A stretch of DNA of 63,900 bases, filler included. It is 15 parts of 15 records of this genome, joined end to end, with 100 filler letters (N's around TTAATTAATTAA, not from the genome) between each part and the next. Parts side by side here need not be neighbours in the genome. Positions count along the whole stretch, not along the records: positions 32,405 to 41,637 come from SRR15195285_6353; 14 more parts are not named here. One strand, given 5' to 3'. The position numbers and the translations under genes are program-made. This document shows, piece after piece, positions 3,044-45,219 of this stretch. The notes below the pieces were generated by a model. The model ran no database searches. It had not been told where the DNA came from and worked only from the letters and a program-made list of their open reading frames with translations. The first letter of the stretch is position 1. Every line of letters begins with the position of its first letter.

Positions 3044-3121
3044 ACCACGCTGATCACGCTGATCACCACGCTGATCGCGCTGGGAACCACGCTGTTCACG
3101 CTGGGAACCCCGCTGGTCACA
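3044..3121. repeat. Degenerate 9-12 nt tandem repeat (ACCACGCTGATC / ACGCTGGGA) just upstream of the ankyrin gene ATG
   Basis: About 7 imperfect CGCTG-core units are visible. An in-frame TGA upstream of ATG 3038 places them in the 5'UTR or promoter. Confidence 0.7.
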
Positions 3122-3370
3122 CTGGCAATGGTGTGGCCAGTTCTCGCACGTTATGAGGGGTGGCCAACAAGCAAAAAGCGGTTGAAACCGCAGTTCCCTG
3201 GCCGTTTTTCAGGCGTGATCCAAATCAGCGGGCGGCGTCAACGTTCCGTCGTTGCGCTCCGCCGCCGCCGCCGGCTGAGGTGCAAATGTTTGTTTCTCCG
3301 AAACAGGGGTGATTGCCAGATTGGCGCAGTTTGGATCCATTGGATCTATTTCCAGTCTTCGGCGGCGCGG

Positions 3371-3470
3371 NNNNNNNNNNNNNNNNNNNNNNNNNNNNNN
3401 NNNNNNNNNNNNNNTTAATTAATTAANNNNNNNNNNNNNNNNNNNNNNNNNNNNNNNNNNNNNNNNNNNN
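3371..3470. other. Artificial contig linker (N44-TTAATTAATTAA-N44). The other 13 are at 7277-7376, 10508-10607, 14884-14983, 20891-20990, 24283-24382, 28426-28525, 32305-32404, 41638-41737, 45120-45219, 48985-49084, 53280-53379, 57114-57213 and 60553-60652
   Basis: The identical 100-nt spacer with stop codons in all six frames occurs 14 times. Confidence 0.99.
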
Positions 3471-3471
3471 C

Positions 3472-4050
<579 letters not shown>

Positions 4051-32052: not shown

Positions 32053-33000
32053 CACCGACCCCGTCTGCCTAGCACGCGTCATCGCTGATACACAGCCGGG
32101 CCCTGACTGCGTGCGTGCCGACGTAGGAGGAGGGCACTCGCTGTGGCAGAGCCAGACGGAGGGCACCGGCCGGCGCGCGGGCCGCCGTCCGTATCCGGCG
32201 CGTGCGCGGCCGCCGGCGAAAGGCGGCTGGCGCGCAGCGGCGAGGGATGGATCGGACCCCGCGCGCGCGTGGCGGGGTTGCGTTCGTTTGCCGAGGGGGG
32301 ACCCNNNNNNNNNNNNNNNNNNNNNNNNNNNNNNNNNNNNNNNNNNNNTTAATTAATTAANNNNNNNNNNNNNNNNNNNNNNNNNNNNNNNNNNNNNNNN
32401 NNNNTGCCACACGGGCTGACTAAGGGAATAGAACTCTCGATCCCGAGCAGAGCCTGTGGAAATCGAAGTTTCTGGTTGGATTGATGGATTCCGAGTTGAC
32501 TTTGCGGATCGTCCTTGATCAACAACAGTCCAACACCGTGCCGAGGCTGTGCGAATTACTCGGCCGTGCAGATGCGCGTGGATTCACACATTAGAACATG
32601 TCATGATCAACAACGGGGATTAAACATTGAATGGCTCATGAAGAATTCAGTCCACAGCTCGCGCGAGGCAGTCAACGGGAACAACGGGAACAACGGAAGT
32701 TCTCAGTAAGTTCTCTATAGATAATACAAACATTCCGGCGCTTGAATCAAAAAATCAACGCCGTTGGCGCCGCCGGTGGAGCAGTCGGTCGCAGGCTGCG
32801 TTGAAACCGTGTTGAGTATGCAAAACACACTGATACATACCGTGCACCCCTCTGTTCACCTCGAAATCGATGGTTTTTCTCAAGGATTACTCAGTAAATT
32901 AGCATTGTTTTGACTCTGCTGGGATTGAAATCTGACCCAACCTGTGACAGTCGGCACGGAGGCTGGCGGACGGCGGAGGGCGCAGCTTGCGACGCGTTCC

Positions 33001-35687
33001 ATGATGTTGCGCCACAGTGCGGTGCTATGTTCGGCTGCCGTCGCCGCCGCTTTGGCCGCCGAGAGCGATGCCACCGCCGTTGCGAAGCTTCCGCCGCAGT
33101 GCGCCGCGCCGACGACTGGCCGTTGCCCGATCCCGATCCCGAGGAGTTCGTACGCAAACTCTGCTGGTCTGTTGACAGCGGCGGAGTGCTGCGCCCAGTG
33201 CGTGGCCGATGGCAGCCTCTGCTTCGGCTGGACCTGGTCGGGCCCGGGCCCGGACACTGAGACGAGCAAGCCCGGTGGCGGGAGCTGCAATCAGTTTGAT
33301 GCGCCGCTCAGCACTACGCACAGGCAGCCGAATAGGAATTGCACGTACGGCTTGAACGCTCGCGACCTGCCGAAGCCATTGCCAGTGCCGCCAAAAAAAC
33401 CGCCGTCAGGAGCCAAAAATGTCTTGTTCCTAGTGGCTGATGGTGCGTGCTGCCCAAGCTTCCCCCTCGCTCATTTGCCGCGCTCGCGCGCTGAGGTTGA
33501 GGAAGTACAAACTAAAATCATCGCAACGCCGAACACGTTCAGACATGCGGCCGTCGATCAACCCGTTTGCGATCGAGGGTGAGGCGCCACGGTACACCAC
33601 GCCGGCGCTCGATGAGCTCGCGAGAACGGGCACCCTGTTCACGCGAGCCTACATTCAAATCTCTTACTGCGCCCCTAGTCGAAATTCATTTATGTCGGGT
33701 AGACGGCCGGACTCGACAAACATCTATTCTTTCATCGGCACATTCCGCGATCCCTCGTCTGGACAGCATTGGGTCTCCCTGCCGGAACAGTTCGTTCAAA
33801 ACGGTTACAATGTCGGCGGCTCTGGCAAGCTATTCCACGTAAGCACCAGCGTTGGCGCGTGCTGGCGCTCGCGACACCGTCCCGCTGTCCCTTTGTTGCT
33901 CTTGGTGCAAAGAGAACAGCCTGCTGAGTTGTGCATGCGATGAGGTGCACGCAGCCAGGTGTGCCAGCCAACTACGACCAGCCATGGTCATGGACGGTGC
34001 CATACCAGGAGCTTGGTGACAACGCAACCAATACGTGCGAAGATTACTGCTGCGGTGTGAACGACGTCAACAGCACGCATGGTAGTGGGCAGGAGGGCCA
34101 CGGTCACTACTGCGCGTACGAACTCGCCCCGGGCACGTACCTATCGGATCAACGCGACACATTTGTGGCCCTGGAGAACCTCCGAAAGATGGGCACAGAC
34201 TACAAAAACACTGGCAAACCGTTCTTCGTTGGGCTGGGTTTTCACAAACCGGTGAGACGGCCATCTGTAGCTGCAGATTGTGCTGTGCGCTTGTCTGGCA
34301 ATTCGCACATCGATCATTATATCAACTATTCCGTGCGACAGCTGCTGCAGTAGCATTCATTCTGAGTTGTTTGCTGCATGTCTTGTGTTGGTATGGTTGC
34401 TCTTCGATGACGTGACGGCCCGTTCCGGTGACGCCTGCAGCACTTGCCTTGGCATTTTCCCAAAGAGTATTGGGACAAAACCCCGCCGAATCCTCCGGTC
34501 GCCAAGCACCAGGCATTCCCAGCGGACGTCCCAGCCATCGGTTGGCATGAGTGTGCTGAGTGCTCAAGCTGGAGCAATCCGGCGAATACAGCTGAGAATG
34601 GACGCATTGCATATTTCAACACGAAAGGAGAAGGCATGGCGCTGCCGAACCAGCAGTGGCAGTCGAACATGCGACGCGCATATTACGCGGCGATTTCCTA
34701 TGTAGACGGCTTGATTGGCGACACGCTGAGCGAGCTGACCGCATTGGGCCTAGACGATTCTACCATTGTGACATTCACAGGAGATCATGGATGGTCAACA
34801 GGCGAACACAATGTCTGGTGAGCTTACATAAACATCAGCACGGACCGATCAAGATGCAAAGCACCACGCTACACGTAGTGAGCGATCGTGTTTGATACTT
34901 CTTGCTACGCTGAGATCCCGATGTTCGTGGTTGCTGTTGGTTTGTTGCAGGTGCAAGATGACCAACAGCGAGGCAGGTACTCGGGTTCCACTCTTCGTCC
35001 GTGCACCCTGGATCAAGCAGTCGATTGGGCTGCGTGCCCCTCACCTGGCCGAACTTGTCGATCTTCTCCCCACGATCTCTGACCTCGCTGGGCTGAAGCT
35101 CCCGGGTGGTGAAGGAGGAGCACGGCTCGGCGGCGTCTCCTTGAAACCGATCATGGCTCAACCAGATATGGCTTGGTCGAAGGTGGCTATGTCACAGTTT
35201 CCGCGATGTTGGCAAAACAACACTGGCTTTGATATGAATCAAGTGCGTTCGTGCATTGTTGTGCGGTCTTTTGTCTTTGGCTCGCCGTGTCTTTGTGCCT
35301 GCCTATCTATAAGATGTGCTGGTGTGCGTGCACCCAACACAGATCCTTGGTCCTGGCGACGAAGTCAACAAGACCGTCAGCTTGACGAGCATGTCAGACT
35401 GCCACTGGGTTCGTCCAGATGCCCTCGACTTTATGGGCTACAGTATGCGCACAGACACACACCGGCTGGTGCAGTGGATGGTGTGGGACGGTGCGGAGCT
35501 ACAGCCCAAGTGGGATCACATCGTTGGCTTAGAACTTTATGACCACTCGTCGAATAGTCAGCTCGACAACTCATACCTAGACGACACAGAGAATGAGAAT
35601 CTGGTAGCTGTGCCAGCCCATGCCGCTCTCCTCGAGCAGCTACAAGCGCAACTCCGAACGGAGGCCGAGAAGTGGCTTAAGCACTAA
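33001..35687 (+). CDS. Secreted iduronate-2-sulfatase-like sulfatase (S1 family) with an N-terminal Cys-rich PAN/apple-like module; introns 33443-33542, 33839-33954, 34252-34440, 34818-34950, 35243-35342
   Basis: NVLFLVAD|DMRP, the FGly motif CAPSRNSFMSGRRPD, GKLFH|PG, GLGFHKP|HLPW, AYYAAISYVDGLIG, GDHGW..GEH..W|CKMTN, ELVDLLPT, MGYSMRT and ELYDH. All five introns restore the frame. Confidence 0.92.
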
Positions 35688-36130
35688 TGTGGTATCAACC
35701 AATTTCATCTTCTCGATCTTTGGTACTAATATGTTGCTTGCACAGCACACCTACGCGGCAAAGCCTATTGATAGCACCCTCCCCGAACGGTCACGATTCG
35801 GCGTTTGCTTCTTGGAAATCGATTCTCGCAACGCGTAGATCCCAGATTGTACTCACTGTACACGTGCTGTACAATGGCTTTGGGTAAGGTGTCTGAGATC
35901 ACCCTTCCGGGGTTCCGATGTTAGGATCGCCTAGGAGCTTGCAACTCGGAGTCGGAGGGCCGGGACTGCATCGCTTCAGGGCAATTACATGGGATAGATG
36001 TACTCAGGTGGCGATGGGCCTTCGACTCCACTTGTGTCTTTGGACGCGGTGCGCACTTCACGATCTTGGCAGGCCAGAGCTAGAGTGTTATCGTTTCAGT
36101 ATACGCGGTATACAAGCACACACAGCGTTT

Positions 36131-36185
36131 TGTCGGGTACCCAAACTGGGCGTACCCAAACTGGGCGTAGGTTGGGTACCCGACA
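36131..36185. repeat. 55-bp element: perfect 14-bp inverted arms around a 15-nt tandem duplication
   Basis: TGTCGGGTACCCAA (36131-36144) pairs with TTGGGTACCCGACA (36172-36185). GTACCCAAACTGGGC occurs twice (36137-36166). Confidence 0.85.
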
Positions 36186-36708
36186 TGCGGGGAGGGGTGG
36201 CCGCACACCTCGGCTAATTGAACCTTGAGACCGGGTGGATGGGTGGTAGACAAAACGCTGTTCAACTTGGTGATCGGAACAAACGGCTTCACAAGTTGAA
36301 GAAACCCTGCAGGCTTGCTCGGTGATGTTAAGGTTGTTTAAATCCAGGTTCCGATGTTTCATTTGCAAGGGCTGTGAACATAGTAGGAGCGCGTATCCCT
36401 ATGGACCACTGCAAGAAATCTGTTCCTGAAGTTTTCGTCGACCTAGCGGCTTCAACCTGTCGTCTGTGCGTGCGGAAGATTGCGGTGATTCAATTTACAC
36501 ACACTAGCAGCGATCCGTACACGATCCAGATGTTGTACGACTAGCATATGACACCACCAGTGTCTTGAGCGTGCTATTCCATCGCCCCATCAGCAACTGG
36601 ACATCAGTGCCCTTGAGCAGGAGGAGGAGGAGGAGGTGCACACAAGAGAGTCGCGAGTGTTCCTGGTCGCTTGCGGTCGCAGCATTTACAAGGTAGCTTG
36701 CGCGCAGC

Positions 36709-39700
36709 TCATGACACAAGGCCTAACACCTCCTCCCCCGCTTCTTCTTCGCCGTCTCTACCACCACTAGCCCCTGCGGTCAGCTCAGCAACTTCATCCG
36801 CAACGTCTTCGGCCACCGCCTCGGTGCTCCCTTCGATTTCATCTTGCATGACTCCCATTGCAGCATCTTCCAAAGCGCACCTGCAACACGTGCAACAGTA
36901 CTCAGTACAGATGAATGTGGGCGCGCTGCTCCCGCTTGCGGTAGCACACTTTGCGACGACCGAGTACAGCTAGCAAATAGAATGATAGACCGGTCGGTAT
37001 AGTTGGACAGACCCATGTGGTGCTGTACTCACCCGCCGAAGATTAGGCCAAACACGAATTCAAATGTTCGTCCAAACATCACAGCCTTCAGTGGATCGAT
37101 CAGAAAGTTGCGCCAGACCAGGGACATCCCGACCGCTGTAAGCCACTCTGCTGTCTTCTCTTCGGAGAACAACACTGTCGTTGCAGCAACTACGACACAC
37201 GATGCCACCGAAGCAACCAAGCTGTATATTATTGGTACTAACCTGGCGCAACCCATCTTTGCCCGTATCTGTAGAGGGCTGACGTGGTGAAACCATATTG
37301 CCACTGCTGCTAGAAGACTGGTCTTATCGATTTGCTTGCCAGATAAGTCACAGCTGAGAAACCAATCGATTTCCGTTTGCGACGGCGGGTGCCCAACGTT
37401 AATATCTGTCAGCAATGCGCGAAGTTGGGCTTCATCCAAGCCGCCGCTGCTGTTGACATCGTAGGATGCAAAGTGTGCGCCAATAAAATCCATTTCATCT
37501 CGTAGGCTGCGCCACATTGCAAGTGACTGCACGAGATCGCTTTTCGAGATCTTGGTCTGGCCTCTCGGATGCTCAGCTAGCACAAGTACGAGATCGATAT
37601 CTGAGTCTGAAACCTTGCACGAGCCACCACCCACATCGATCATAATCGCTCTCAATTCACGCCTCGTGAGCATATCTGGCCAGCCCTTGAGGGCCTGTTG
37701 GACCCAGAGCTCGTGCACGCCCAACTGCAGAGCGATTGCACGGCGGCGCCGACCTGCAGCGTGTGCTGCGGCCAGGTCAACGTCGGCTTCGATTGCTCGT
37801 CGCATCATTACGCGTGGCATCCACAGCAGCACTGCACGGCGCAACTCCTTGCGCTTAAGCGATGCAGCCTGGTCGTGTTCATTCGGACCCAAAGAACATC
37901 CGCTCTCGGCAACTTGCATCACCCAGTTTACCTCGTCATGGGATGGTGAATCTCCGTCTAGACGTTCGAGCAAACTAAATACTTCATCTTGAGAGAAGTC
38001 GGTGCTCCTGTCGAGATCACATTCGTCAAGCATTTGATCTAAGTGTACTAGCTCGGTCTGCACTGCCATATGCAGCGCAATTGCTGTCTTTACTTCCTCT
38101 ATGGCAATGAGGTCAGGAGTGTGAATGTTTGCCGCGTGCAGAACGAAGTCGACTGCGGATTCATCCACCAGCTGAGGATCGTTCGGGTTCAGAGCAGGGA
38201 TGGAAGCACTAAGATCGTCTTTCTGCCTTCGATGCTCTACGGAATGAATGAGCTGTTTCAGCTGCTGCTTGTCCAGGATCGGCTTCCAAGTTTCAGCGTT
38301 CTGAGCAATGACTGTGTCAACCACCGTGAGCCAGCTGTCCACATTGGTGCGTACGCGGCACCTGATCCCTCCCTGCTTCCCATGACGCATACAAGGAGCA
38401 GCAACGGCTCGCCGGGCATGCACGCGTGGATAAAATACAGCCACTGCTTTCCAAACCTCCGCACGCGACAATGTTGTTGCTTCAACACCAAGTTTCCAGC
38501 CATCAAAGGTCGTGCTGCGAACACGTGAGATGATGTGATTCGCTTCTTCGGCTGTGGGAGGTACACCATCGTTGACATCAGCCAGAAGCTGACTCAAGCA
38601 TGTCACGGGCACAGCTCCAGAGTGCGCCTCGTCTAGTCTTTCGAATGCCTCGTCAACAAGCTGCTGCTCGGTTTGCAAGGCGAGGTACAGAGGCACTGCT
38701 GTTTTGAGCTCATTCAGGCTGATGCAACCTGTCTTGTCTGCGTCACAAGATGACATGACGAAATCGACTGCAAACGCAGACACCGGCTTCGGGGAGTTAA
38801 GCTCTTCCATCAGTTGTCTGACATCGTGCGCTTTGATGCCACCGCCTCCCTCGGGCACAAACTTTTCCCATTGCTGCTCAATCCAGATCTCCTGGCGTCG
38901 CCTGATGTGCCCATCCTGCTCATGCCTCTTCTTGCTACGTGGATCCACCACCTTCGCCTGGCGTGGTGCAGTCAAATCCGTCGTCGACTCATCGTCGAAT
39001 GCGTACACCTTTTGTCTGCTACGGAACAAGCAGGGCAGCGACACCCGGATGCACTTCTTACGGAGAGTGCACCACGCGTGCATCGGCTCAAGACATTTGT
39101 TGTCTACTTCCTGCGTGGCATTAGGCTCCTTAGGATCTGCAGGTGTCTTTTCAGCAATGCCGACCCCTTGCTCAGTCTGTCGGATTGTGCGGCCAATGAC
39201 ACCAGCCTTCAAACTGAGGTCACCCTCTACGGTGCACAGAGACGCCCAAAAGTGATGCACAGAACTGATAGGTTGGAGCACGAGCACGAGCACTCGGATC
39301 AGGTCATGGAGGTCTTACCAAAAGGGCGGCGCAGCCATGCAAACACGAAGTTCTATCGCACAGAGACAGATCGCCAGAATGTCAAGAACTATCCGCTCAA
39401 AAAGGTCACTGCCAAGCACGGGCATATCTCACCAGCGTGCCGCATATTGGTATACTGACTGCAGCCGCCAGCAACGAGGCCAGCAGCCCGTTGCCTTCGC
39501 ACTCTCTATCGCACTGCTCCGCGCATTCCGTGTCCCCGCCGCTGTAAGTCTCGTCCGGGCCTGCACCAGCCGCATAGTCAATTCTATTTACTTGCACTGC
39601 ACCCGAGTAGAGAAGTAGACTTACAGGCGTCGTAGCAATCAGGATCTGGCTTGGTAAAGAATAGCACCTGTCGTGAGTGAAAAAAGTCAACAAGCCATCT

Positions 39701-41637
39701 CACTGCTCAGATAGATGTACAGTGACCGATTTGATTGGTCTACGTACGTTCAAGACCATCGTAATCAATGTTGCCCCCCAAATCACAAGTAGCCGCTGAG
39801 ATTTCAGATATGGATCACCGCGGTAGCCGAAAACCATTGCGCCAACAGGCCATTCAGTTCTGAGCTTGATACAGCATTGCTTAAACCACGAAACGTCGGT
39901 ACTATCCAACAGCTGGCGCTGATGCACAAACTCTGATGCTCGGTGCTCGTAATCACGGCGCCGCTGCTCTTGTGCCGAAACTTCCTCTACGAGATCGTTG
40001 TATATCTTCAAGCTAAGCATCGCAGTGAATATAGACAGCACCAGTGTAGAAAAAGCTGTAATTGCTGACACTGGGTTGTTAGTTATCCATTCTTTAGAAA
40101 AAAGCGCTGTCACACTCATCCTGTTGAAAGTAGGGGCTATTTACCAAGCATACGCAACATGCAAACCAGGATATTGAGAGGCACAGACTATAAGATGTGC
40201 TACCTATGCAACGAAAATTCTACCTTCATCTGAAAGGGTCGACAGCAGCTTCTAGCAGCTTGAGGAGATTACTGAGCGTGCAAGTAAGAGGCTCACCTGG
40301 TCCAATGAAGTTGGAGAACGAAGTAAGGTGCGTGAATGCACACGTGGCAGAAGTTTCGTTCCTGACCACTAGCTCACCATCCTCTCTCCACAGTTTAGCT
40401 GAAGCATCCCAGAAGCTGCACAGAAGTGCATCACCAAGGTACACTTTACGCAGTAGACCCCGCATGCATTCACACTCTTCCGGCCATTGTGCGCAGTCCT
40501 CAGCACCTCCACGGATTCCGGAGCATCCAGGAATCGCTTCTTCAGCCCGAAGTGCTGCATCACACGACTCCGGGGTGGATGGACAGAAGAGCTGCTCATC
40601 GGTTTCTCTTCGCCGAAGCTCTTCTCGCTCGAGCTGCAGAGTCGCGGTAAAGTTGCCAGCAGCAAAACCACAGGAAGCAGCAGCTGCTTCGCCAGCAACA
40701 CTCACCGCTTCCGTTGTCATGCTTGTCCGATTCCACAGGCGGGATATGTACTCCTCAACCTCGTCCAGCGTCCGTCCGTCAAGATTTGCAGAGAAGTGGG
40801 GTCTACGAATTATTGGAATGGTCACGAGCAGCGGATCACTCAGATCACGCACCTCCAGTTCGGTACTCGCTTGGAGCTGTCGCCGACCGCCGGGTGCAAC
40901 ATTGAATTTGATGGTTGTCACACCAGAGGAGCGCTCAGCGTTTGAACCGTCGGTCATTGTGGCTGGTGTCCAGAACAATGGGCCAGCTTTCGCATATACA
41001 ACGACTGTCGAAGACACGACAGCGCCGTTCGCCGCCGCCAGTGCACCAGGCGGTACTGAAACCACACCTGCCAAGGTCGTCCCTTCCAACTGCTCCGGGC
41101 TGTCTTTGGCAACCACGAGCTCAAATGTGTCCGTCTGTAGCACGCTTGGGGGTGACCCAACATCTAAGCTGTTCGAAATACTTGCTGAAATGGACAGCAC
41201 CACATTCTCCAGGCGCTCGCCCCTGTTTTCGTTATCGTCAGCAATCGATGCCTGGGATTCCACAGTGACAAACAAGGAGCTTGTTGCTGAAGCAGCTGCG
41301 TCCACTTGGTAATCAAGCACCTCACCCTGTCTTGTCATCTCTTCAATCAACTCGATGGCCGTGTCCGCTGCTACTGCATCGATTTCATCTGGACGTTCAA
41401 CCACCGCGGCCAAACTGACGCTGACAGTTTCCAGCGTTCCTGCTGTGAGGTTACCAGATCGTCGAACAACGTCGTCGAGTGAATTTATCAGCTCAGTCCG
41501 GATCGCCACCGCATCTTCTCTAGATAATTCTGCCCCAGTGAGATTGCTGTTCAGCGCCTCTGACAGCTCTGTCACGAGTTGAGGCGCGTCTTCGATAGTG
41601 ATGTTATTCAACAAATCTGTGACAAGTTGAGATGTGT
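36709..41637 (-). CDS. Polycystin-1/REJ-like GAIN(GPS) membrane protein with 5 TM segments and a large cytoplasmic EF-hand array (5'-truncated, about 5 introns)
   Basis: GPS motif CSFWD...W..DG....ATCAFTHLTSF; PTFNRM...NNP then TM1; EWPVGAMVF...SQRLLVIW (TM2); TM3 LLASLLAAAVSIPICGTL|NFVF; EF loops DADKTGCISLNE, DEAHSGAVPV, DLDRSTDFSQDE and DVNSSGGLDEAQ; final TM pair ...FSEEKTAEWLTAVGMSL...IDPLKA; acidic tail. Confidence 0.75.
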
Positions 41638-41912: not shown

Positions 41913-42909
41913 ATGGAGTCGCTGCAGCTGACGAGCGCAGAGGTCCACTCACTCCGGCGCTCGCTGGTGGAAGACGGATACTGCATCATCCGCCAGGTCA
42001 TGGATGGAAATCTCGTGCAGCGCGTGCGGGACTGGAGCGATGCGCTCCTCTCAAGCCCGGACCACCCGGAATGGAGCGTCAAATTCCAGGGTATGCGCTC
42101 TCTGCCATGAACTACCGGTGCGATGTGTCGGGCCCTGACCTGCGTCCCTGTTGGCCGGAGCAGGGGACGTCGAATTCTGCCAATCCCCGCGCGCAGTCAG
42201 AGCAGCTACGGGTGCGCCCGGCGAGCAAAGTTCCGCACGACGCCCCTTGGCAGCAAATCACTCGATACACCCGATCGTAGAGGAAATTTTTGATCTACCC
42301 GCAGCGAAGTCCGTTTGCGATGCGATTGGCCTCGAGAATCTACGTTCCGACAACGAGACAATTATCTTGCTGAGCAAGTACCCGGGTGCTCCGCCGCTGT
42401 ATTTTCACCAAGACCTGATGAATTGGGATCATGCGTCCGCCACAACCCCGTGGCCGACCAGGGTGTTTCTGAACTACTATACCGTTGACACGGACCGGTC
42501 CAACGGATGCCTGCGGGTAATCCCGGGCAGCCATCGGAAGCGCCATCGGCTGCACGATGTGCTGCCGGACGCGCACGGGCAGGAGCTCACAGAGGCCAAG
42601 GACTTATCAGCTGAAATCTTCGGGAGCGACATCCCGGACGCAATTGACGTGCCGTTGGCTGCTGGTGACCTAATCATCGGTGACGCACGACTCCTGCACG
42701 CGGCTTGGCCCAACACGACTGACACACGGCGCACCTGCGTGCTTGCCTGGCACAACGTCTTCGACTTTCCAAGCCCACCATCTTGGTGGACTGGCGATAT
42801 TCCAGACGAGGTTCAGCAGTACAGCGCCGAGGACGAAGTGCCGCCGACGACACGGAAACCTCGGAGGAGCGCACAGCACGCGGCAGCAGAAGCAAACGCT
42901 CGACTGTAG
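41913..42909 (+). CDS. Phytanoyl-CoA dioxygenase (PhyH) family protein; intron 42091-42163
   Basis: LVEDGYCIIRQV, PLYFHQD, YYTVDTDRSNGCLRVIPGSH and AGDLIIGDARLLHAAWPN...RR. Confidence 0.9.
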
Positions 42910-43083: not shown

Positions 43084-44652
43084 CTAAGCTGTCTTCTGCT
43101 CCCGCGCCTGCTCTATACCCTGGTCTACAGCCTCAGGCTCGGCCGCAAGCTCAGGCTCAGGCACAGCACCATCTCCGTCCGCTTCGGCAGGTCGGCTGGC
43201 ATTCCACTTCTGACCTTCCGATATATTTCTGCAAGCGTGCAAGAACCGATCCCGGTCGTACTCCGCCTGGAAAGCAAAGTTCGCCTCCTTGTCCTTCCGT
43301 GTGTTGAAGCCAGCTTCGTTCTGAGTACTCACTGTCATTTTGAAGTACTCACCGTGCAGCGTGAATTTCTCCATGCCTCCTTCAATTGTACAGTTCGAAA
43401 GATCCTCAATTGATGTGGTCCGGGTTTCAGGAGCAGCGGTTTCGTCTTGTGTCCAGGCATCGAACATTTCTTTGGTGTCGAAGACCAGCAGCTTCTGGTC
43501 CCTGATTGCGATGAACCGTTGGGGGCAGTAGGCCGTGAATTTGGGCTTCTGCTTCAACGCGACTGCCGTGGGTTCATCTTCCTCGTTAGCTCCTCCTGCT
43601 GCTCTCTCTGCTATCGCCGGTACCGATGCTGCGCCAGCGCTAAGATGGTGGGCCTCGAAGGCCTTTACGGCGGCTTGCTGAGACTCCCCGAGACTCACGT
43701 GCGGCCGGCGCTGCTTGACAAAGGCCATCGCCTCGTCCGCAGTCATCCCTCGATGCACCAGATAGCAGCACACCACAGCGCAGCTGCGCCCTCTGCCGGC
43801 CTTGCAGTGCACATACACTGTGTTCTGCTGCGCCATGTGTTTGTCGAGGAATACACACGCTTCGTCAAACTGTTCCGGCGTCGGGCGGTTGAAATCCTCT
43901 ACCGGAAAGATCATCTGATCTACCCCCTTGCTGACCCATTCTTCAGTAGAGACCGGGGTGTTGAGGTAAGTCGGCTGCAGCTCGTAGGCTTTGTTGAGGG
44001 TGAGCACGGCGCGAACTCGGCTGAAGCCATTCGCGGCAACGGTAGCCTCAGTGAGAGTTTCAAGATGGCCCTCCGGCTGGAGCGGGAGGGCACCGAGGAC
44101 TATAGTGCCGTACGGGAGCAACAGCGGCGTCCACCAAGGCCGCCCGCCCTGGGAAAAGGTTGCGTTTGGCAGCGAGAGGAACTTGTTGTAGGTCAGCGAC
44201 ACGTTGTACACGAGGCTCTGCTTGGTTGTGCCCGCGCCGTCGCTCGGAGGCGCGTCGGCGGCCGGCGCGTCGGCGGCCGGCGCGTCGGCGGCTGGCGATA
44301 GCGCGTCGGCGGCTGGCGCGTCGCTAGGTGGCGTGTCGCCGCCGCCAGGTGGCGCAGCAGCCGCAGCCTCGTCATCCGTGCCGCCTAGCGAGCCCTCCCG
44401 CTCGAGTGTGATCATCGGCGGCGGGGTGTCGCCGTAGATCGACCTCCGGTTCCCGTCGCCCGCCCCCTCACCCTCACCCTCACCCTCCTCCACTCCTCCA
44501 GGCTCCCGCTCGGGCGCCAGCACGACCTCCGTCTCCACCCCTTCACCGCCACCGTCAGCAGCATCAGCAGCAGCAGCATCCTCCACCGCTGGCACCGGCG
44601 CCGGTGCGGCCACCTCCCCGCCGTGCTCCGCCAACGCCGACTTGTCCTCCAT
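43084..44652 (-). CDS. PTPMT1-like dual-specificity (lipid) phosphatase with an acidic N-terminus and a C-terminal PH-like domain
   Basis: IVLGALP, VLTLNKAYE, PVEDF, P-loop VYVHCKAGRGRS and VKQRRP. The C-terminus QRFIAIRDQKLLVFD...FAFQAEYDRDRFLHAC is PH-like. ATG at 44652. Confidence 0.8.
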   Translation of the reverse strand: MEDKSALAEHGGEVAAPAPVPAVEDAAAADAADGGGEGVETEVVLAPEREPGGVEEGEGEGEGAGDGNRRSIYGDTPPPMITLEREGSLGGTDDEAAAAAPPGGGDTPPSDAPAADALSPAADAPAADAPAADAPPSDGAGTTKQSLVYNVSLTYNKFLSLPNATFSQGGRPWWTPLLLPYGTIVLGALPLQPEGHLETLTEATVAANGFSRVRAVLTLNKAYELQPTYLNTPVSTEEWVSKGVDQMIFPVEDFNRPTPEQFDEACVFLDKHMAQQNTVYVHCKAGRGRSCAVVCCYLVHRGMTADEAMAFVKQRRPHVSLGESQQAAVKAFEAHHLSAGAASVPAIAERAAGGANEEDEPTAVALKQKPKFTAYCPQRFIAIRDQKLLVFDTKEMFDAWTQDETAAPETRTTSIEDLSNCTIEGGMEKFTLHGEYFKMTVSTQNEAGFNTRKDKEANFAFQAEYDRDRFLHACRNISEGQKWNASRPAEADGDGAVPEPELAAEPEAVDQGIEQAREQKTA

Positions 44653-45219
44653 CACCCCTCGCCACGAACACGCCGGTCCAACCTGCAGCGGCAGCGGCAC
44701 TGCCCGCGACTGCAGACGATGTAACTCCTTGACAAGCAGCTTCAAACCGCAGTTGCAAACCAGCAGGGCGCCAACGCCAACGCCAACGCTAACGAACTTC
44801 GTTGCAGGGGGGGGGTAGCAGCCTGGCAGGGGAGGGTGCCGTGGCCTCGGCTCGATTTTTTCTTCAGTCAACTTTTAGATATATTATATATGAATTGTTA
44901 CTGGGAATTTGCATGGAAAAAAACATTCGCGCCGCTCCCGCTCGCGTCGGCGGCAACGCACACTGCGCCACTGGGGGGGGAGCTTGGCCTTCCTCGATCG
45001 ATCCACGGTGCAGGGATCCTCCCGGTGGCCGAGCCTCGCGGCGCCGGCGGGTCGGTGCTCCATCGGCGCCGCGGTTTTCTGGTGACCAGTCCACAGAGGT
45101 CCGAGACCGGGACAATCCTNNNNNNNNNNNNNNNNNNNNNNNNNNNNNNNNNNNNNNNNNNNNTTAATTAATTAANNNNNNNNNNNNNNNNNNNNNNNNN
45201 NNNNNNNNNNNNNNNNNNN

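Follow-up and report, generated by a model that had tools for sequence, protein, structure and literature searches.

The window analysed in this work (positions 1-63900, the whole stretch of 63,900 nt) consists of 15 short contigs with 14 linkers of N44-TTAATTAATTAA-N44 between them, and features near the linkers are cut because a contig ends there, not for any biological reason. On the minus strand of one of these contigs (32405-41637) lies a gene, at 36709-41637, whose spliced product combines an extracellular GAIN domain, five transmembrane (TM) segments and a long cytoplasmic array of EF-hands, and which we discuss here as a probable distant relative of polycystin-1 (PC1). The gene runs off its own contig at 41637 and is therefore 5'-truncated. 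Its seven exons (A to G; Table 1), delineated from stop-to-stop open reading frames (ORFs) and by reading of the splice sites, join into one open frame of 1432 aa with zero internal stops; all exon borders are canonical GT..AG and all splice phases fit. The joined frame contains five hydrophobic segments (model residues 468-492, 560-582, 613-640, 1302-1333 and ~1341-1380), as many as the initial annotation of this locus had counted. The remaining contigs of the window gave no paralogue of the gene.

The gene is real and expressed. Seawater metatranscriptome contigs from the runs X1, X3 and X4, which represent three studies, carry the joint between exons F and G (152 nt skipped, GT..AG), one X1 contig carries the joint between exons A and B (160 nt skipped), and 25 of the 27 aligned RNA contigs are at least 99% identical to the locus. 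Since one X1 contig (record 1) continues unspliced from 36877 to 36400, through the stop codon and 309 nt beyond it, these transcripts contain no further coding exon. The RNA bears out introns 1 and 6 and the stop at 36711-36709, and leaves exons B to F unbridged. All six junctions are, on the other hand, spanned by contiguous homologous proteins: P0007 is contiguous from A/B to D/E (63.7% identity over 637 aa, with 3 gaps), P0011 and P0013 from A/B to E/F, P0005 over D/E, E/F and F/G, covering the region from TM3 to the tail, and P0002 over F/G. The GPS motif, TM1-3 and the start of the EF-hand array stand in one chain both in P0013 and in P0011, so that the premise of a single transcript for the GAIN and EF-hand parts is supported at the level of proteins and not at that of RNA. 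The homologs also decided between alternative splice sites. The acceptor of exon D was placed at 39561/39560 because P0007 does not have the 12 residues that the upstream site would add. The candidates at 39597/39596 for exon D and at 39137/39136 for exon F were rejected, P0007 and P0013 fitting the sites at 39561/39560 and 39227/39226, and an alternative acceptor of the last exon (a 'gctag' site leading into a basic frame) is contradicted by the RNA joints.

The extracellular part encoded in the window is confirmed, on the evidence of its predicted structure, to fold as a GAIN domain. The AF2 model of exon A (49-row alignment; pLDDT 86.2, pTM 0.76) combines a subdomain of helices with a beta-sandwich and an inserted helical segment, and its best Foldseek match is the GAIN domain of BAI3 (E 1.4e-7), accompanied by those of BAI2, latrophilin-3, CELSR1, latrophilin-1 and GPR110; the top GAIN matches range from E 1.4e-7 to 2.9e-6, and 11 matches were obtained at E<=0.001. 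The GPS motif, which Pfam recognizes and which aligns with the GPS of ADGRF1, retains an intact H-L|T autoproteolysis triplet (codons 40330-40322), as had been claimed from the sequence, and TM1 begins ~30 residues after it. What precedes the GAIN domain can be learned from P0010, a protein of 1269 aa that matches exon A (40295-41635) at 99.8% identity over 447 aa and continues into the same intron, and that adds ~800 N-terminal residues not present in the window. Read by eye, it begins like a signal sequence and continues with a Cys-rich repeat of ~50 aa that occurs four times; a CBM96-like carbohydrate-binding module, recognized by Pfam (PF24517, 61.1 bits), comes next, and a Cys module of ~100 aa, present in two identical copies, leads to the GAIN domain. 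Comparison of P0010 with itself by BLAST gave no repeat rows, and the repeats rest on the reading by eye.

For the membrane part, structural comparison with PC1 was made on P0091, a compact relative of 427 aa that possesses all five helices and a short TM3-TM4 loop. The AF2 model of P0091 (63 family rows) has a pLDDT of 78.8 and a pTM of 0.73, with the helices above 90; it shows TM4-5 packed on TM1-3, also at pLDDT above 90, a beta hairpin in the region between TM2 and TM3, and a helical loop 1. When this model was compared by VIA-align with 48,161 representative chains, PC1 (8z6b_A) ranked first with Z 12.3, and the second-ranked chain had Z 7.3; 195 residues were aligned at a root-mean-square deviation (rmsd) of 4.8 A and 16% identity, matching residues 37-398 of the model to 3063-3610 of PC1. 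VIA-align on the Foldseek list gave Z 12.2-13.6 for seven PC1 entries (rmsd 4.4-5.1 A, 185-210 residues aligned, 16-18% identity) and 5.2 for the next row, with the alignments covering approximately residues 3061-3622 of PC1, which, following the UniProt topology, we take to be the stalk and TM1-5. Foldseek itself placed two PC1 chains on top (E ~1, probability 0.90 and 0.84), all other rows having a probability of at most 0.08. The chains of G protein-coupled receptors (GPCRs) reached no more than Z 5.2 and a Foldseek probability of 0.04. The family profile aligns with the window protein on both sides of its insert (residues 423-684 and 1305-1373), and the TM4-5 module of the window protein scores 78 bits.

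Sequence comparisons are less telling. Apart from matches to the GPS of adhesion GPCRs, PC1 proteins are the only membrane proteins matched by the family profile. A phmmer search of exon A, exon B and the TM4-5 piece against the sequences of the PDB returned no PC1, its only match being the GPS of ADGRF1 (E 0.16), and the ESM Atlas had no usable match for the TM4-5 piece and, for P0091, only leads below 0.9. A family profile without the GPS, which was meant to raise the PC1 alignment, contained members with EF-hands and returned only calmodulins; it yielded no alignment of the family with PC1 at the level of residues.

The topology proposed for these segments would place the GAIN domain outside the cell, loop 1 inside, the Cys-rich TM2-TM3 hairpin outside, the EF-hand array inside, the turn of ~7 residues between TM4 and TM5 outside, and the acidic tail inside. 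Two parts of PC1 are missing. According to Pfam, neither the ORFs of the window nor P0007 nor any of 31 long relatives has a PLAT domain, and loop 1, where PLAT would be expected after TM1, is ~67 aa long; nor did Pfam find a PKD_channel (TM6-11) domain in the ORFs of the window or in the 31 long relatives. Beyond TM5 the protein has only a tail of 57 aa, with 17 D+E and 1 K+R, and four homologs have an acidic end as well. A search for longer homologs of the EF-hand exon, i.e. for fused forms, found none, which is weak evidence. The GAIN domain is followed by five hydrophobic segments and not by the 7TM domain of the adhesion GPCRs (class B2). On these points the initial annotation, which had described a protein with polycystin-1-type motifs around five TM segments, without PLAT, without a channel domain and with an acidic end, and which had denied it the status of a 7-TM adhesion GPCR, holds throughout: the motifs turned out to be columns conserved in the whole family, the likeness to TM1-5 of PC1 was borne out by the superposition of P0091, and the end of the protein is fixed by the F/G joint in three RNA runs and by the unspliced transcript.

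The loop between TM3 and TM4 had been put at about 600 aa; it is in fact 657 aa long and contains three tandem homologous modules of four EF-hands each, in agreement with the three internally repeated blocks noted earlier. Pfam detects EF-hand_7, EF-hand_6 and EF-hand_1 in exon F above the cut-off (50.4, 33.9 and 32.7 bits), and pairwise comparison of the modules by hhalign yields probabilities of 99.5, 99.1 and 99.3 (E 2.7e-23, 4.1e-19 and 2.7e-20). Each block can be regarded as a calmodulin-like module, because a profile built from six homologs aligns with the whole of calmodulin (profile positions 120-248 on residues 13-136 of calmodulin, E ~1e-10). The one canonical Ca2+ loop is conserved in the orthologs P0002 and P0003. 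The best-conserved element of every module is its last helix and not its loops: the modules end in a nearly invariant basic amphipathic helix (~38394-38460, 37734-37800 and 37239-37300), which may act as a built-in, tethered target helix.

The window gene belongs to a broader family of protist proteins, apparently undescribed. With P0007 as query, phmmer returned 141 matches at E<=0.001 from 1.84 billion representative proteins; most of these matches cover the GPS and TM1-3. Among the 31 long relatives analysed with Pfam, which include two GPS-kinase proteins (P0110 and P0137) that have only the GPS in common with the others, REJ was found in 17 (and also in P0009), EF-hand families in nine, C2 in two, a combination of cNMP-binding, C2 and ankyrin domains in one, and PLAT or PKD_channel in none. 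The same proteins carry the TM4-5 module after TM1-3, as a profile of that module shows, and an iterated search from P0091 found TM1-3 in 67 proteins, TM4-5 in 16, and both in 15. The length of the TM3-TM4 loop varies from ~110 aa (P0091, P0040) to the 657 aa of the window protein, and the inserts include EF-hands (P0038, P0055, P0097), C2 (P0024) and cNMP-binding, C2 and ankyrin domains (P0031). The conserved columns, all present in the window protein, are H-L-T, GP, N..NP.G before TM1, GDP..QR before TM2 (94-98% conserved), four loop cysteines, a P in TM3, F.WL..P after TM3, and WL and DPLK in TM5 (WL...DPLK; P 100%, K 93%); column P227 of the family, which falls in exon E, is 100% conserved. 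TM4 and TM5 are extremely conserved, and TM5 carries polar or charged residues (R, N, D and K) around DPLK.

Taken together, the observation made in the initial annotation is confirmed, with all of its elements found on the minus strand where it had placed them, and its interpretation is supported. In the reading that we favor, with a probability of roughly 60%, the gene, of which the window contains the 3'-terminal 4.9 kb, encodes a large type-I-oriented surface receptor of a marine protist (~2,230 aa), a distant member of the polycystin-1/REJ superfamily. The analysis shows its architecture: an adhesion-type ectodomain, a GAIN domain and a PC1-like five-helix core, without PLAT and TM6-11, a calmodulin-like TM3-TM4 loop, and a short acidic tail. 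From this architecture we infer how such a receptor could signal by cleavage, sensing of force or ligand, and coupling to Ca2+. The GAIN domain would cleave itself, and the ectodomain would stay non-covalently attached to the membrane stalk; binding of a ligand to the ectodomain, or pulling on it, would then change how the five helices are packed. The motifs with the strongest conservation in this bundle (GDP..QR, F.WL..P and DPLK) are at its cytoplasmic face, and it is directly on this face that the calmodulin-like array would sit, anchored to TM3 at one end and to TM4 at the other. Because of this tethering, the array could link the state of the receptor to cytosolic Ca2+, or recruit targets in a Ca2+-dependent manner. 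The protein alone would form no pore of the polycystin type.

Several observations weigh against this reading. No spliced RNA was found across 39025-39875 among the metatranscriptome contigs, and contigs of the run X2 cross exon-intron borders unspliced (39304-39488, 39875-40195 and 40269-40730), for which reason they are uninformative on splicing. The GPS retains two of the usual four cysteines in the alignment with ADGRF1, the other two being absent, and self-cleavage is predicted from the intact H-L|T motif. Pfam finds no REJ in P0010 at E<=1. The structural comparison was made on P0091, which is only ~22-27% identical to the window protein; the Z-scores of 12-13 for PC1 lie in a range (up to ~13) that helical bundles can reach by arrangement alone, and the match of the family sequence profile to PC1, over TM3-TM5, is weak and not significant (E 1.1-1.4). 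We nevertheless consider homology of the five-helix core with TM1-5 of PC1 likely on the strength of the model, if unproven at the sequence level, because the PC1 match stands 5-8 Z units above the next row and covers the whole domain in order, and because the GAIN and REJ context agrees. Finally, among the ~12 EF-hand loops of the window protein there are only one strictly canonical and two near-canonical ones, compared with 4-5 canonical loops in the paralogs P0004-P0006, and the sensing of Ca2+ by the window copy may be weak or lost. The "integral Ca2+ sensor" of the initial annotation is plausible, and weaker than first stated, because most of the loops are degenerate in this copy. As a side remark, the X2 library represents pre-mRNA or DNA of the same organism.

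The state of the EF-hand loops leads to the idea that the array is a degenerate structural scaffold or a platform for docking of proteins, the receptor signalling independently of Ca2+. The single strictly canonical loop, the Q at position 12 of the near-canonical loop in module 3, and the conservation of the last helix rather than the loops in each module would be expected in that case; however, the paralogs keep 4-5 canonical loops, the canonical loop is conserved in P0002 and P0003, and relatives place other second-messenger sensors at the same site, and we consider such a scaffold improbable. We regard it as unlikely, too, that the protein is an auxiliary subunit of a separate channel of the TRPP/PKD2 type, which it would gate or traffic in the manner of the PC1/PC2 pair, with the calmodulin-like modules providing Ca2+ feedback. 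PC1 touches PC2 through TM6-11 and its C-terminal coiled coil, neither of which is present here. An auxiliary role would nonetheless agree with the homology to the N-terminal half of PC1, and the accessible text of one survey says of PKD1-family proteins that they bind smaller proteins and regulate ion channel activities (PMC1934368).

It is very unlikely that the five-helix domain itself transports or conducts, e.g. as an oligomer regulated by Ca2+ via the loop: the extreme conservation of TM4-TM5 and the polar or charged residues in TM5 could be explained in this way, but the monomer model matched no pore-like fold, and its only structural match is a peripheral, non-pore part of PC1. A further explanation, namely an erroneous fusion of two adjacent genes (one encoding GAIN-TM1-3, the other EF-TM4-5), would account for the missing RNA bridge across 39025-39875 and for the database ORF calls that split the locus (P0001; P0008 versus P0003 on one contig). 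We find it hard to reconcile with the chains of P0013 and P0011, which run from the GPS to the EF-hand array, and of P0005, which runs from TM3 to the tail, with the 15 relatives that have TM1-3 and TM4-5 in one protein, with the packing of TM4-5 on TM1-3 predicted by AF2 for P0091 at pLDDT above 90, and with the canonical splice sites whose phases all fit; a gene-model artefact is accordingly a marginal prospect.

The receptor that we favor shares with the PKD1/REJ family (PKD1, PKD1L1-3, PKDREJ and the sea urchin SpREJ1-10) the GAIN/GPS unit with H-L|T directly before TM1, a five-helix N-terminal membrane domain that superposes on ~3061-3622 of PC1 (shown on P0091) and, in many of its relatives, the REJ domain. 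On the other hand, it has neither PLAT in the TM1-TM2 loop nor the channel-like TM6-11 domain of PC1, no REJ was detected in its own N-terminus (P0010), and it possesses three calmodulin-like modules in the TM3-TM4 loop and a CBM96-like module in the ectodomain. Such variation has precedents: the members of the PKD1 family in the sea urchin have 1-11 TM segments, with PLAT in only five of ten and channel domains in only four, according to the accessible text of the survey (PMC1934368). Another protein with similarities is Esi0130_0068 of Ectocarpus, a male-gamete-specific membrane protein with REJ and GPS (1427 aa, with 6-7 predicted TM segments after an ectodomain of 976 aa), as given in the available excerpt of the report (PMC4700764). 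Compared by description and not by sequence, it is of a size that would suit the compact five-TM form, but that excerpt mentions no EF-hand array (PMC4700764).

With the adhesion GPCRs (ADGRL, ADGRB, ADGRF) the window protein has in common the GAIN fold and the GPS, and presumably the non-covalent arrangement of N-terminal and C-terminal fragments (NTF/CTF), but its membrane part consists of five helices of the PC1 type and not of 7TM. Excerpts of the literature place GAIN domains in Tetrahymena and Dictyostelium (PMC3321182) and date the link between GAIN and 7TM to stem holozoans (PMC12716839). As in calmodulin and domains of the CDPK type, each module of the loop aligns with the whole of calmodulin, with its four EF-hands; unlike calmodulin, the modules stand in tandem in a loop of a membrane protein, tethered at both ends, most of their loops are degenerate, and each ends in a conserved basic helix. 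A literature search of limited coverage turned up no GPS/REJ protein described as carrying an EF-hand array or other sensor domains in its TM3-TM4 loop.

It is tempting to go one step further and to propose, as a tentative idea to which we would give clearly less than even odds, that the GAIN domain and the five-helix module together constitute a receptor core that is ancient, can stand by itself and is widespread among protists, that PC1 is this core fused to a channel of the TRPP type, and that the TM3-TM4 loop of the protist proteins is a plug-in site for calmodulin-like arrays, C2, or cNMP-binding and ankyrin domains. If this is true, these proteins form a class of adhesion receptors, neither GPCRs nor channels, that join extracellular contact with the intracellular state of Ca2+, lipids or cyclic nucleotides. 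To our knowledge, the function of the TM1-5 membrane domain of PC1 is not understood. Here, an expressed gene from an ocean protist probably encodes a fold of this type as a stand-alone receptor core that lacks both PLAT and the channel half, and the insertion of different second-messenger sensors into the same loop suggests that the cytoplasmic face between TM3 and TM4 is the working surface of the module. The relatives of the window protein could serve as small, natural, channel-free versions for studies of signalling from GAIN to the membrane, and the family as a whole bears on the evolutionary assembly of polycystin-1.

Table 1. Features of the gene, in the order of transcription; positions refer to the whole window.
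Feature	Position	Strand	Content and basis
Exon A	40297-41635	-	5' end lost at the contig border; GAIN domain with helical subdomain, beta-sandwich and a helical insert that contains Cys
GPS motif	40313-40423	-	Pfam PF01825, 28.1 bits against a cut-off of 22.5
Intron 1	40137-40296	-	GT..AG, 160 nt; joint 40136->40297 in one run-X1 RNA contig; spanned by P0007, P0011, P0013
Exon B	39748-40136	-	Stalk after the cleavage site, TM1, cytoplasmic loop 1 of ~67 aa, GDP..QR motif and start of TM2; hydropathy and family profile; no Pfam family above cut-off
TM1	40000-40074	-	In exon B
Exon C (43 nt)	39625-39667	-	Last part of TM2, then the beginning of the extracellular Cys-rich loop; canonical splice sites, P0007 contiguous
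Exon D	39433-39560	-	Cys-rich extracellular hairpin, then TM3 (first half)
Exon E (34 nt)	39319-39352	-	TM3 (second half), with the F.WL..P motif on the cytoplasmic side; contiguous in P0005, P0013, P0011
Exon F	37033-39226	-	Cytoplasmic loop of 657 aa, TM4, most of TM5; E/F junction spanned by P0013, P0011
Calmodulin-like module 1	38394-38897	-	Four EF-hand-like motifs; hhalign against modules 2 and 3: probability 99.5, 99.1
Only strictly canonical Ca2+ loop	38709-38744	-	In module 1; loop scan
Calmodulin-like module 2	37734-38393	-	Near-canonical loop 37983-38018; hhalign, loop scan
Calmodulin-like module 3	37239-37733	-	Near-canonical loop 37425-37460, Q at position 12; best EF-hand_7/_6 stretch
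TM4	37161-37256	-	In exon F
Last intron	36881-37032	-	GT..AG, 152 nt; joint in RNA contigs of X1, X3, X4; contiguous in P0002-P0005
Exon G	36709-36880	-	End of TM5, acidic tail of 57 aa, stop TGA 36711-36709

The surroundings of the gene offer some minor observations. Its convergent neighbor on the plus strand, at 33434-35687, appears to be a multi-exon, sulfatase-like gene (PF00884, 47.2 bits on 33434-33940). The next contig carries an ORF for a PhyH-like dioxygenase at 42139-42906 (plus strand, 65.2 bits), and a long ORF at 43087-44874 (minus strand) includes a domain of the dual-specificity phosphatase type (DSPc, 64.2 bits).

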